Shown in pieces: positions 5,336 through 35,860 of a stretch of 64,000 nt of DNA. The position numbers and the translations under genes are program-made. The notes beneath the pieces are model-generated. The model worked only from the letters and a program-made list of their open reading frames with translations. It was not told the DNA's origin and did not search any database. The stretch spans positions 7,975-71,974 of the forward strand of contig JBBSIZ010000006.1 of NCBI GenBank assembly GCA_038257735.1, read 5' to 3'. The first letter of the stretch is position 1. The number at the start of each line of letters is the position of its first letter. This DNA is from Sphingomonadales bacterium (GTDB taxonomy: Bacteria; Pseudomonadota; Alphaproteobacteria; Sphingomonadales; Sphingomonadaceae).

Positions 5336-5365
5336 CCCTGACCCGGCTCAAAGTACCACTTTGAG
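5336..5365. other. Conserved 30-bp motif with an 8-3-8 palindrome (CTCAAAGT-ACC-ACTTTGAG), copy 1
   Basis: 27/30 identical to 34441-34470. Related copy at 35834-35860. Confidence 0.8.
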
Positions 5366-5377
5366 ACGAGAGCCCCT

Positions 5378-8062
5378 ATGACCGCCGTCGGCAACAACGC
5401 CCTGAACACCCGCACCACCCTCACCGCCGCCGGCAAAACCTACTTTTATTACTCCCTCTCCAAAGCCGCGGCCCAGCTCGGCGACGTCTCCCGCCTGCCC
5501 TTCTCGATGAAGGTGCTCCTCGAAAACCTCCTCCGCTTCGAGGACGGGGTCACCGTCACCCGCGCCGACATCCAGGCGCTGGTCGACTGGCAGAAGGAGC
5601 GAAGCTCGAAGGCGGAGATCCAGTATCGCCCGGCGCGGGTGCTGATGCAGGATTTCACCGGGGTGCCCGCCGTCGTCGATCTCGCGGCGATGCGCGACGC
5701 GATGGCTCTGCTCGGCGGCAATGCCTCTCGGATCAACCCGCAGGTGCCGGTCCATCTCGTCATCGATCACAGCGTCATGGTCGACGCCTTCGGCAGCCCG
5801 CAGGCGTTCGAGAAGAATGTAGAGCTCGAATATCACCGCAACATGGAGCGGTACGAATTTTTGAAATGGGGCTCGAAGGCGTTCGACAATTTCGAGGTGG
5901 TCCCGCCCGGGACCGGAATCTGCCACCAGGTCAATCTCGAATATATTTCGCGCGGCGTCTGGTCCTCGGACGATCCGTCGGGCGAGTCGGTGGCCTATCC
6001 CGACACATTGGTCGGTACCGACAGCCACACCACCATGGTCAACGGCCTCGGAGTGCTCGGCTGGGGAGTCGGCGGGATCGAGGCGGAGGCGGCGATGCTC
6101 GGCCAGCCGGTCTCGATGCTGATCCCCGAAGTGGTCGGATTCCACCTCACCGGAAGCTTGCAGGAAGGGATCACCGCCACCGATCTCGTCCTCACCGTCA
6201 CCCAGATGCTCCGGGCCCGCGGAGTGGTCGGGCGGTTCGTGGAATTCTATGGCGCCGGAGTCTCGGCTTTGTCGGTCGCCGATCGGGCCACCATCGCCAA
6301 CATGGCGCCCGAATATGGAGCGACCTGCGGCTTCTTCCCGATCGACGGCAAGACTCTCGATTACATGCGCCTCACCGGCCGCTCCGACGATCGGATCGCG
6401 CTCACCGAGGCCTATGCCAAAGCGCAGGGCCTTTGGCTCGAGCCGGGCGCCTATCACGAGCCGCTCTTCACCGACACATTGGAGCTCGACATGGACCGGG
6501 TCGAGCCGTCGCTGGCCGGCCCCAAGCGCCCGCAGGACAAGGTGCCTTTGTCGCGGGTCGACGAGGAGTTCGTCGCCAATTTCACCAAGGAATATGGCCA
6601 CGCGCTGGGCGAGCTGTGCGAGCGCCATCCGGTCGAGGGCGAGTCCGACGTGACCGACATCGGCCATGGCGACGTCGTCATCGCGGCGATCACTTCTTGC
6701 ACCAACACCTCCAACCCGGCCGTCCTGATCGCCGCCGGACTCGTCGCCCGAAAGGCGCGGGCGAAGGGGCTGGATTCCAGGCCCTGGGTGAAGACGTCGC
6801 TCGCTCCGGGTTCGCAGGTCGTCACCGACTATCTCGACCGCGCCGGTTTGTCGGAGGATCTGAACGCGATCGGCTTCAACCTGGTCGGCTATGGCTGCAC
6901 CACCTGCATCGGCAATTCGGGGCCGCTTCCCGAGCCGATCTCGGCGGCGATCGCGAAGCACGATCTCGTCGCCGCCTCGGTGCTGTCGGGCAACCGCAAT
7001 TTCGAGGGCCGGGTGTCGCCGGACGTCCGGGCCAATTATCTCGCCTCGCCGCCGCTCGTCGTCGCTTATGCGCTGAAGGGCACGGTCGCCGGCGACATGA
7101 TAGAGGAGCCTTTGGGCATCGGATCGGACGGGCAGCCCGTCTTCCTCAAGGACGTCTGGCCGACCAACGACGAGATCCGCAGGCTGATCGACGCTCATGT
7201 CCATGGCGACATGTTCCGGGCCCGTTATGCCGACGTCTACAAGGGTGACGCCCAGTGGCGCTCGATTCCGGTCGCGGGGGGCGAGACCTATGCCTGGTCG
7301 GCGGGCTCGACCTACATCCAGAACCCGCCTTATTTCGAGGGCATGACGATGACACCGACTGCGCCTTCGGACGTCGAAAATGCGCGTCCACTGGCGATTT
7401 TCGGCGATTCCATCACCACCGACCACATTTCCCCCGCGGGCGCGATCAAGGGCGACAGCCCGGCCGGGAATTACCTTTCGGAACATGAGGTCAGCCGGGC
7501 GGACTTCAACTCCTACGGCGCCCGCCGGGGCAATCACGAAGTGATGATGCGCGGCACCTTCGCCAATATCCGAATAAAAAACCGAATGATTCCAGGCACC
7601 GAAGGCGGCTTCACCCGCCACATCCCCTCGGGCGAGACCCTCCCCATCTACGATGCCGCGATGCGCTACAAGGCGGAAGGAACACCGCTCGTCGTCATCG
7701 CGGGCAAGGAATATGGAACCGGCTCCTCGCGCGACTGGGCCGCCAAGGGCACCAATTTGCTCGGGGTCCGGGCCGTCATCGCCGAAACCTATGAGCGGAT
7801 CCACCGCTCCAACCTGGTCGGGATGGGCGTGGTGCCGCTCCAGTTCGTCGGCGACGTTCCGATCTTCGACGGCACGGAAACCTTCTCGATCAAGGGGATA
7901 GCCGGCCTCAAGCCGCGCCAGGAGCTGGATGTGCGGGTAACCAAAGCGGACGGCTCGACCTTCGCCTTCACTGCCCGGGTCCGAATCGACACCTTGAACG
8001 AGCTCGAATATTTCCGGGCTGGCGGAATCCTCCATTACGTCCTCCGCAAGCTCGCCGCCTGA
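5378..8062 (+). CDS. acnA: Aconitate hydratase A
   Basis: [57 protein letters not shown]; 894 aa. Confidence 0.98.
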
Positions 8063-8079
8063 GCGCGACCGAGCTCCTG

Positions 8080-8328
8080 GTGGAGGCCGCGGGCTGGGGC
8101 GGCGCGTCGCTCATCCTCTCGGCCTATCTCCTCCTGTCGATGGAGAAGGTGAGCGGCCAGTCGCCTGTCTACCAGGGCATGAACGTCGCCGGTGCCGCCG
8201 GCTTCATCGTCAACGGCTGGTGGCACGGTGCCATTCCGTCCGCCGCTCTCAACGTGATATGGATCCTGATCGGCGGCTTCGCGCTCCTGCGCATCGCGAA
8301 GCGCCGCCGGATGGAGGGGGTGTCGTAA
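8080..8328 (+). CDS. Small membrane protein (CBU_0592-like)
   Basis: Three hydrophobic segments (GWGGASLILSAYLL, YQGMNVAGAAGFIVN, AALNVIWILIG). Confidence 0.7.
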   Translation: MEAAGWGGASLILSAYLLLSMEKVSGQSPVYQGMNVAGAAGFIVNGWWHGAIPSAALNVIWILIGGFALLRIAKRRRMEGVS

Positions 8329-8678
8329 TGATCGAAGCGCTGCTGATGCTCGCGCCAATGCTTGCGCCAATGCTTGCAGCGACGGGCGAATATGAGCCGC
8401 CGCCGGAGCTCTTCTACCACCAGGCGGTTTCCTGCGCGGCCTCGCTCAAGGTCATTGTCGGCAAGGAGCCGAGCCCGGCGCAATTCGCGGACGTGATGAC
8501 CTGGGGAATGATCATGGCCGATAGCGGCCGCAGGATCGGCCGCAGCAAGGAGCAGGTCGACAGCGGCGACCTGGAAATCGCCGAGCCCTTCTACCAGCGG
8601 CTGAAGGAGACGAAGCCCAAAGCCTTCTCCGCCCACCGCGCTTATTGCCAGGCCATGTTAAGTGCTGATCGACCTTAG
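8328..8678 (+). CDS. Hypothetical exported protein
   Basis: ATG overlaps the preceding TAA. Hydrophobic N-terminus, and it overlaps the next gene start. Confidence 0.6.
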   Translation: MIEALLMLAPMLAPMLAATGEYEPPPELFYHQAVSCAASLKVIVGKEPSPAQFADVMTWGMIMADSGRRIGRSKEQVDSGDLEIAEPFYQRLKETKPKAFSAHRAYCQAMLSADRP

Positions 8679-35041: not shown

Positions 35042-35137
35042 ATGGACCGCCGTCCGCCAGGCCTAGGCCCCGCCGCCGAGGCCTTCGCGCGGGTCGCCGC
35101 CCGGATGGCGGAGTATGAGGCGAAGCGTGGCGCTTGA
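35042..35137 (+). pseudogene. Internally deleted antitoxin plus the first codons of a ParE
   Basis: MDRRPPGLGPAAEAFARVAARMAEYEAKRGA*, overlapped by gtggcgcttgaggttcgc (MALEVR). Confidence 0.7.
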
Positions 35138-35177
35138 GGTTCGCTTCCTTGCTTTAGTGCAGCCATTGCACTAGAAC

Positions 35178-35402
35178 ATGCCTCGGCTACAGCGCTTTTC
35201 CGCCTGCGAGATCGCGATGTTTTTCGCCGATCATCCGCCGCCGCATTTCCACGTGCTGGGGCGCGACGGAGCGGCGCAGGTGCGGATCGATACGCTGGAG
35301 GTGATCGTCTCGAGCGGGCGAATCGATCTTCGCGAGGCGCTCGACTGGGCGGCCGAGAACATGAAGCTGCTCGAGGCGAAGTGGCGGGAGCTAAGCGAAT
35401 GA
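35178..35402 (+). CDS. DUF4160 family protein (putative toxin)
   Basis: MFFADHPPPHFHV...ALDWAAENMKLLEAKW. Confidence 0.85.
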   Translation: MPRLQRFSACEIAMFFADHPPPHFHVLGRDGAAQVRIDTLEVIVSSGRIDLREALDWAAENMKLLEAKWRELSE

Positions 35403-35830
35403 GCATCGGCAGGATCGAAAGTGTCGCGATGAGGGCAAAGTCCGCGCTGGTCGTGACCTGGGACGACGGTTGCCGCGCCGAGATCGACCTCGCTCCGATC
35501 ATCGCCGACCATCCGAAGCTTCGCCCGCTCGCGGATCCGGATTCCTTCCCCGTCCGCTCGGACGATGGCTGGTCGGTCGAATGGCCGCATTGCGGTATAG
35601 ATCTCGGCTCGCCGCAGCTGAGGCGCTGGGCAGACGAACAGCGGGGAGAGGTGATGTCGGCCACCGCCTTTCGCGCCTGGATGCAGCGGCATGGCCATAC
35701 GCTCGACGCCGCCGCCGAGGCGCTCGGCCTCTCCCGCCGCACCGTCGCTTATTATCTCAGCGGCGAGCAGCCTGTCCCGAAGACGGTCATGCTGGCCACG
35801 GAAGGGTTCGACAAAAGGCAGGCGGCCTGA
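35399..35830 (+). CDS. DUF2442 + HTH protein (putative antitoxin)
   Basis: LVVTWDDG, GWSVEWP..IDLGS, and a C-terminal HTH (LDAAAEALGLSRRTVAYY). Confidence 0.85.
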   Translation: MSIGRIESVAMRAKSALVVTWDDGCRAEIDLAPIIADHPKLRPLADPDSFPVRSDDGWSVEWPHCGIDLGSPQLRRWADEQRGEVMSATAFRAWMQRHGHTLDAAAEALGLSRRTVAYYLSGEQPVPKTVMLATEGFDKRQAA

Positions 35831-35833
35831 ATC

Positions 35834-35860
35834 CCCCGACCCCGCCGAAGTACCACTTCG
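35834..35860. other. Motif copy 3 (CGAAGT-ACC-ACTTCG)
   Basis: Lies between the DUF2442 stop and the lepA stop. Confidence 0.7.

Follow-up and report, generated by a model that had tools for sequence, protein, structure and literature searches.

The window analyzed here is a 64,000-nucleotide stretch of contig JBBSIZ010000006.1 (positions 7,975 to 71,974 of the forward strand; GenBank assembly GCA_038257735.1) from a Sphingomonadales bacterium, a metagenome-assembled genome of Allosphingosinicella (G000; 3.19 Mb in 80 contigs). Within it, a short hairpin-forming palindrome occurs three times beside two core genes, acnA and lepA (Table 1). Copy 1 lies in the acnA leader, and the acnA start follows its stem by 13 nt. 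Copy 2 lies 7 nt past the stop codon of a displaced lepA 3' fragment (34478-34480, minus strand) and 5 nt past the stop codon of a plus-strand ParE toxin gene (34444-34446), while copy 3 lies 10 nt past the stop codon of intact lepA (35871-35873, minus strand) and just past that of a plus-strand DUF2442-HTH (helix-turn-helix) gene.

An initial annotation had described these elements as three covarying hairpins in one orientation, with accessory DNA to the left and acnA, the lepA fragment or lepA to the right, and this description was confirmed. Between copies 1 and 2 there are 3 differences in 30 positions, matching the 27/30 identity reported before, and all three copies form perfect stems around an ACC loop (CTCAAAGT/ACTTTGAG, CGCAAAGT/ACTTTGCG and CGAAGT/ACTTCG) whose arms differ by compensatory changes. 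With at most one mismatch, AAGTACCACTT occurs three times in the window, always on the plus strand, against 0.10 occurrences expected; none of 100 shuffles reached three. CCCTGACCCG belongs to the element as a semi-conserved tail and is not a motif of its own. An independent unitig of run X1, probably from the source sample, matches 34184-34591 without difference and so spans copy 2 with its junctions; none of the listed unitigs of that probable source run bridges copy 3.

Table 1. Features of the window, and related loci in other genomes. G, C and L numbers are our labels for genomes, contigs and loci; ORF, open reading frame.
Feature	Position	Strand	Remarks
Palindromic element, copy 1	5336-5365 (5336-5370 with flank)	+	acnA 5' leader; tail CCCTGACCCGG 5336-5346; stem CTCAAAGT 5347-5354; loop ACC 5355-5357; stem ACTTTGAG 5358-5365
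Flank of copy 1	5365-5368		GACG (other strand CGTC), running into a GAGAG Shine-Dalgarno-like stretch; acnA ATG at 5378
Palindromic element, copy 2	34441-34470	-	stem CGCAAAGT 34452-34459; loop 34460-34462; stem ACTTTGCG 34463-34470
Palindromic element, copy 3	35834-35860	-	stem CGAAGT 35846-35851; loop 35852-35854; stem ACTTCG 35855-35860
acnA, aconitate hydratase, 894 aa	5378-8062	+	Aconitase 2.5e-168; Aconitase_C 9.5e-43
lepA, intact, 617 aa	35871-37724	-	97% identical to LepA of Allosphingosinicella sp. DASVSX010000070.1
Displaced copy of the last 169 bp of lepA	34478-34646	-	93% identical to 35871-36039 (repeat D2)
Insert between the two lepA 3' ends	34732-35830		PaaA2-type antitoxin 34732-34911 (minus); DUF4160/DUF2442-HTH pair, DUF4160 35178-35402 (plus) and DUF2442-HTH 35381-35830 (plus)
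Putative restriction-modification block left of acnA, low GC (0.50-0.59)	1945-5260		context, outside the hairpin element; C5 DNA methylase 1945-3564 (plus); GmrSD_N-domain protein 3561-4565 (minus); unknown ORF 4562-5260 (minus)
Accessory stretch left of copy 2	29627-34446		context only; C5 methylase 30317-31690; 374-aa unknown ORF; several PaaA2-like antitoxin genes or remnants; ParE toxin ending at 34446
Gene-end duplication loci	window 34478-34646 vs 35871-36039; L141 (G081); L016 (G005); L032 (G021); L212; L213; L225
Hairpin pairs in the tRNA spacer	L033 (G005:C18) 1413-1662; L136; L137; L139; L130; L131		tRNA-Met(CAT)/tRNA-Pro(TGG)

Elsewhere in the assembly, a fourth exact copy lies on contig C33, just after the rpoA stop codon and on the opposite strand, and two degenerate copies were found on C35 (a variant with an ATC loop) and C4 (decayed), for a total of four to six. 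The four canonical copies belong to housekeeping genes (the acnA leader, the lepA trailer twice and the rpoA trailer) and not to accessory blocks. There are two rpoA 3' ends in the assembly, C33:41309-41599 and C52:15404-15694. On C52 full rpoA precedes a terminator only, and on C33 an rpoA piece at the contig end precedes the hairpin, a terminator and two small ORFs. These ORFs we take, from our own reading rather than a Pfam scan, to be a toxin-antitoxin-like pair of the DUF4258/DUF2283 type. The C33 piece probably represents a further displaced gene end, at which the assembly broke.

The hairpin belongs to a repeat family that spans the genus. The exact 11-mer of the motif was present in 19 of 24 genus genomes at 1-10 copies each, compared to 0-4 for a reversed control, and hardly at all outside the genus. 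Thirty genus members aligned without gaps; their 11-bp stem is paired in 92% of cells, with double-sided changes in seven pairs and a covariation score of 0.443, compared to 0.125 for shuffles and 0.03-0.11 for slid controls. A covariance model built from these 30 instances (R1) matched in 74/81 genus genomes, or 72/79 without G084 and G096, two unpublished genomes on which no other claim here relies. Counts ranged from 0 to 62-70 matches per genome in a search that scored at most 77 candidates per genome, and a fuller search of three high-copy genomes gave 79-91 matches each. Because many sites match on both strands, we estimate ~40-50 distinct sites per high-copy genome. Beyond the genus, 20 of 141 sampled Sphingomonadaceae genomes, representing 18 of 112 genera with Allosphingosinicella included, contained a match; copy numbers outside the genus were mostly 1-7 per genome, with one genome at 20. 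In 12 loci, the window sites included, no Rfam family covered the hairpin at E-values up to 1.

The alignment and searches also define the element. The ACC spacer, described earlier as fixed, is constant among the four canonical copies of this genome but not elsewhere, where the loop reads ATC, GCC, TCC, AAT, ATT, CGT or AGT; the last four occur in the high-copy genomes (G060, G072), in which hairpins are clustered and nested in longer palindromes. Since the loop varies there, the conserved core is (C)AAAGT-N3-ACTTT(G) and not the ACC loop. On the strand that carries the GGT loop, the element measures ~35-45 nt, with a short 5' tag that is often (A/T)TC or CGTC, a stem of 8-11 bp whose outer part varies with compensatory changes, an apex of (C)AAAGT-NNN-ACTTT(G), and a G-rich tail that is often CCGGGTCAGGG. 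Members are found for the most part at ordinary gene ends, within operons or in clusters free of genes.

Several positions beside core genes are conserved. At rpoA, the hairpin lies 1-10 nt past the stop codon in 13/30 genus loci, and every hairpin-bearing genome seen has, 10-15 nt further on, a canonical GC-rich terminator with a T-run; rpoA loci that lack the hairpin have the terminator only. At acnA, it directly precedes a Shine-Dalgarno-like GACGAGG and the ATG in 8/29 genus loci and lies ~1 kb upstream in three further loci, the remaining genomes having a different leader. Equivalent hairpins that differ by compensatory changes lie at the lepA 3' end in about five genomes (G000, G086, G016, G065 and G081). 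We had considered a hairpin after lepA as an ancestral trait of the whole order and rejected this when none of 80 Sphingomonadales lepA loci, few of them from the genus, had one; it was later seen in several genus members. The spacer between tRNA-Met(CAT) and tRNA-Pro(TGG) is filled by a head-to-head pair of hairpins ~60 nt apart, an arrangement kept in several genomes. Given that the rpoA, acnA and lepA positions recur in relatives, the few copies of the present genome are the widely conserved ones.

The hairpin is also placed with a constant polarity relative to its gene. At 17 sites a stop codon is followed after 1-10 nt by a stem with the GGT loop in the gene sense, and at two sites, both between convergent genes, the polarity is opposite. 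Genes preceding the oriented hairpins include rpsK, fabG, glnB, ybaB, ridA, a DEAD-box helicase gene, rpoA and lepA.

Taken together, the data suggest, with a probability of roughly 0.7, that the motif is a low-copy representative of a REP (repetitive extragenic palindromic)-like palindrome family in Allosphingosinicella and is best read as a transcribed hairpin of the untranslated region (UTR). The hairpin would be transcribed together with its gene, and the resulting stem-loop near the stop codon may act as a barrier to 3' exonucleases or as a modulator of translation or termination; at acnA it abuts the ribosome-binding site. In some lineages the element may have multiplied as a selfish repeat, possibly through single-stranded DNA. 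The lepA hairpin is present twice in the window because a toxin-antitoxin insertion duplicated the last 169 bp of lepA together with the trailer. Strict placement 1-10 nt past the stop codon, a single polarity, and retention at the same gene ends across species look more like a selected UTR element than like junk.

A number of observations weigh against a transcribed UTR hairpin within a REP-like family. The polarity count of 17 to 2 rests on genes called by a crude GC3 rule in related genomes that are not independent. The acnA copies have the ACC loop in the gene sense, opposite to the other sites, and a role in RNA is less clear there since the base of the stem has A.C mismatches and not the U.G pairs seen elsewhere. 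Among the oriented copies, 16 G.U pairs were counted vs 1 A.C, nearly all of them from one conserved position (5'-T...G-3' at pair 12); as this single position drives the excess and may be a sequence tag rather than a wobble pair, it is weak evidence, and in the unoriented seed alignment G.T and A.C are equal at seven each. Gene polarity could instead reflect strand-specific insertion at replication. All four canonical copies of this genome lie on the C-rich strand, where GC skew is negative but weak (n=4); the complete genome G060 displays no half-chromosome strand pattern, but its strand calls are unreliable because the loops are nearly symmetric. A public RNA run and two other DNA runs contained conserved lepA fragments only, and these came from other organisms. 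Lastly, this genome has far fewer copies than is usual for classical REPs.

It is unlikely that the hairpin itself ends transcription at lepA, rpoA and other genes as a U-less (I-shaped) intrinsic terminator or attenuator. The initial annotation had listed a U-less 3' hairpin among its readings and had argued against a simple terminator because no plus-strand gene ends next to copy 1. A 3' hairpin is close to the evidence for copies 2 and 3, which follow stop codons on the minus strand, a strand not considered at the time; no terminator role is supported. A terminator would fit the close and uniformly oriented spacing to stop codons, as well as the stability of the gene-sense RNA of the lepA copies, which folds at -17.6 kcal/mol for copy 2 (minus strand, lepA sense; -10.7 for the plus strand) and -19.5 kcal/mol for copy 3 (-10.9 for the plus strand), and 14 of the 17 oriented sites have no other terminator detected within 110 nt. 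However, none of the 17 oriented copies is followed by a T-run, some copies separate co-transcribed genes within an operon (rpsK and rpoA, for example), and rpoA is followed by a terminator of its own; together these observations indicate that the hairpin is not a terminator. The acnA copy, which sits in a 5' leader just ahead of the ribosome-binding site and is oriented the other way, is likewise difficult to reconcile with termination, and no terminator-like site was found around copy 1.

Gene ends next to the hairpins are themselves recurrently duplicated: in many genus genomes, the terminal 50-200 bp of lepA (3'), rpoA (3') and acnA (5') are repeated around small toxin-antitoxin or other inserts. 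Displaced lepA 3' fragments were found in at least nine genus genomes, displaced rpoA 3' fragments in G081, G064, G024 and probably also the present genome (C33 vs C52), and displaced acnA 5' fragments in G005, G021, G042, G062, G045 and G093. Such duplications could be the result of Campbell-type or homology-facilitated illegitimate recombination. A search of the literature for integration at lepA returned nothing relevant.

The initial annotation had proposed that the hairpin is a recombination or end-recognition site of integrase-less cassettes. In this model a recombinase encoded elsewhere would recognize the hairpin, perhaps as folded single-stranded DNA like attC, and toxin-antitoxin or restriction-modification cassettes would be inserted and excised there; in a weaker form, the palindrome would only promote breakage or template switching and so create hot spots. 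We regard this as improbable. Parts of the local arrangement do resemble such a site: the 1.39-kb insert after lepA is bracketed by two hairpins in the same orientation, G081 has a comparable arrangement with three lepA 3' fragments, and pairs in the same orientation lie 0.9-1.4 kb apart in several other genomes. All four canonical copies adjoin accessory genes (on our own ORF reading, this includes the toxin-antitoxin-like pair after the rpoA-side copy), the 117-kb contig has no tyrosine recombinase, and the gene-end duplications at acnA, lepA and rpoA in several genomes would also be accommodated.

The boundaries of the rearrangements, however, do not fall at the hairpin. At acnA, homology with G076, the closest relative there, starts at 5280, ~55 nt to the left of copy 1 and left of a conserved promoter-like TTGCTAGAGCC, and the acnA hairpin is present in G076 next to a different upstream neighbor. 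At lepA, the repeated unit is the 169 bp of coding sequence plus the trailer, and not the hairpin alone or a short core at it. In the closest lepA relative (L044), PaaA2-ParE comes directly after lepA and there is no hairpin, and duplications or insertions that lack the family hairpin occur at rpoA in G024 and at lepA in G074, G022, G046 and G056. In relatives the same hairpin is found at acnA, rpoA and lepA whatever adjoins it, and in other genomes dozens of copies lie at ordinary gene ends or in clusters, the outcome that the initial annotation had named as refuting its proposal. No attC signature was present in the sequences read. Based on the offset of the acnA break, the 169-bp repeat, the hairpin-free duplications and the placement at ordinary gene ends, we conclude that the hairpin is not a recombination site or island end. 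The hairpins border accessory DNA because they are tied to conserved gene ends, which are hot spots of insertion and carry the hairpins along when they are duplicated.

It is comparably doubtful that the palindrome or the gene-end segment actively captures small defense or toxin-antitoxin cassettes, in which case circles or fragments carrying a gene end and hairpin would integrate beside acnA, lepA or rpoA and leave a displaced fragment behind; if true, this would constitute an integrase-independent system of cassette accretion in an alphaproteobacterial genus. Least probable is that CAAAGT-N3-ACTTTG is a duplex operator for a dimeric regulator controlling acnA and other genes, for example of the GntR/FadR type, whose GT-N-AC operator core (GT-N3-AC) we take the apex to resemble: the apex is a conserved, near-perfect palindrome with a fixed 3-bp spacing just upstream of acnA in many genomes, but the variable outer stem covaries, keeping its complementarity through double changes that a protein-DNA site does not need, most copies lie after stop codons or in clusters and not at promoters, and copy number ranges from 0 to ~50 among congeners, which makes the unknown operator suggested by the initial annotation unlikely.

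The accessory DNA around the copies has a composite structure. The minus-strand ORF at 34478-34729 is a fusion in which ~35 codons from the start of a ParE toxin gene run in frame into the final ~50 codons of lepA, and Pfam reports a ParE_toxin N-terminus together with LepA_C (8.7e-24). A 92-nt segment is present in three diverged copies (33523-33614, 34050-34141 and 35033-35124), and the PaaA2 antitoxin gene in two copies that are 78% identical (32960-33182 vs 34724-34946); these appear to be left over from repeated toxin-antitoxin insertions downstream of lepA. The low-GC blocks at 1945-5260 and 30317-32814, each with a C5 cytosine methylase, are probably restriction-modification or defense modules. 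A promoter scan around copy 1 gave no match. Further to the left, a tandem repeat at 240-795 (period 166 nt, 3.3 copies, 90% matches) with a partial copy at 1244-1352 lies in a stretch of 0.73 GC; a 207-aa ORF that overlaps the 240-795 repeat has no Pfam match.

Some palindromes lie within coding sequence. In G019 (L129, C31), two family hairpins at 499-530 and 1509-1540 are located inside the ORFs of a phage- or gene transfer agent (GTA)-type terminase and its upstream gene, and both read in frame as ...SGT.... In a test for in-frame insertion of these two copies, the site was variable among paralogues and insertion could not be shown. The present genome has five paralogous large terminase genes of phage or GTA type, on contigs C56, C35, C5, C8 and C41. 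The C35 terminase contains a 25-aa insert (…ARSEATRQSS…LLRCARNDG…) that we take to resemble a palindromic repeat read in frame.

The observation of a repeated hairpin is real and beyond chance, and for the most part it is an ordinary finding. It adds a family of REP-like palindromes, not described before, from a soil genus that has received little study. For annotation, the family accounts for the short conserved hairpins near rpoA, acnA, lepA, rpsK and tRNA genes and helps to keep them from being mistaken for island ends, and the placement of the hairpin offers a simple system for studying the role of REP-like hairpins in alphaproteobacteria. More unusual in this region is the repeated duplication of gene ends around small toxin-antitoxin and restriction cassettes.

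Among known systems, integron attC sites and CALINs (clusters of attC sites lacking integron integrases) resemble the lepA region in that a hairpin follows each of two small toxin-antitoxin cassettes in one orientation with no integrase nearby. The attC site has core sites of the form RYYYAAC...GTTRRRY, extrahelical bases and a length of 57-141 nt, and occurs in arrays next to, or derived from, intI. The Allosphingosinicella hairpin, unlike attC, lacks R''/R' core sites and extrahelical bases, is far shorter, and lies mainly at core-gene ends and in operons, and the cassette boundaries are set by the 169-bp lepA repeat rather than by the hairpin. Integrons are not known from alphaproteobacteria.

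The family also resembles the REP, BIME (bacterial interspersed mosaic element) and REPIN (paired REP) elements of Enterobacteria and Pseudomonas. Both are imperfect palindromes of 20-40 nt between genes, in clusters of alternating orientation and in inverted pairs, which in the hairpin family include the pair of the tRNA-Met/tRNA-Pro spacer; the family has a stem of 8-11 bp, mostly intergenic sites, and up to ~40-50 sites per genome in congeners. It differs from REPs and REPINs in having no GTAG at either end, neither in the alignment of 30 sequences nor in the 17 oriented 3' copies. A link to the REP-associated tyrosine transposase (RAYT) was considered and rejected: the high-copy genomes G014, G072, G042 and G005 lack PF01797 while the zero-copy genomes G001 and G046 have it, and the 12 Y1 transposase loci all lacked a flanking hairpin. 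A likely role as a 3'-UTR RNA hairpin is a further point of similarity. REPs within ~15 nt of a stop codon were reportedly found by Liang, Rudd and Deutscher in 2015 to lower translation through ribosome stalling, a distance that matches the 1-10 nt spacing seen here. E. coli REPs have also been described as exonuclease roadblocks or leaky terminators (bioRxiv 10.64898/2026.03.23.713779).

Within alphaproteobacteria, the nearest comparison is with the REP-type repeats described by Di Nocera et al. 2013 (PMC3733652). There, alphaproteobacterial REP-type repeats, including those of the sphingomonads S. wittichii and S. chlorophenolicum, are placed mostly downstream of coding regions and sometimes within genes, and are thought to act as RNA hairpins. 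Families tagged with CGTC often form head-to-head pairs or clusters, with very uneven copy numbers between species, and have 8-9 bp stems starting with A.T pairs, loops of 4-5 nt and a CCA tail. The Allosphingosinicella hairpin differs from these definitions in its stem of up to 11 bp with a GC-rich base, its 3-nt loop, its AAAGT/ACTTT apex, and a tail of CCGG(GTCAGGG), that is CCGG/GGGTCAGGG, in place of CCA. The tag (CGTC, or TGTC/CCTC) is unevenly distributed in the family: CGTC stands directly 5' of the stem on the GGT strand in the rpoA, acnA and lepA (G081, G086) subfamily, in copy 1 and in the C33 copy, but the tag is absent from copies 2 and 3, and CGTC from most copies of the CCC...GGG subtype. 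As this separation relies on the text definitions of PMC3733652, the hairpin family may prove identical to one of the published families.

A true CGTC-type element (CGTCATGCTGAAC...TCAGCATCCA), clearly different from the hairpin family, coexists with it in Allosphingosinicella. This second repeat occurs in at least 10 places in the present genome, including ~18740-18824 of the window, and often consists of an inverted pair of ~90 nt; in relatives it lies directly after lepA and upstream of the acnA promoter (L044:4844-4930, L172, L174, L176 and L233-L235). What the hairpin family shares with the CGTC-tagged REPs, as they are described in PMC3733652, are short stem-loops located mostly downstream of coding regions and now and then within genes, frequent head-to-head pairs or clusters, copy numbers that vary widely between species, and the lack of a dedicated transposase.

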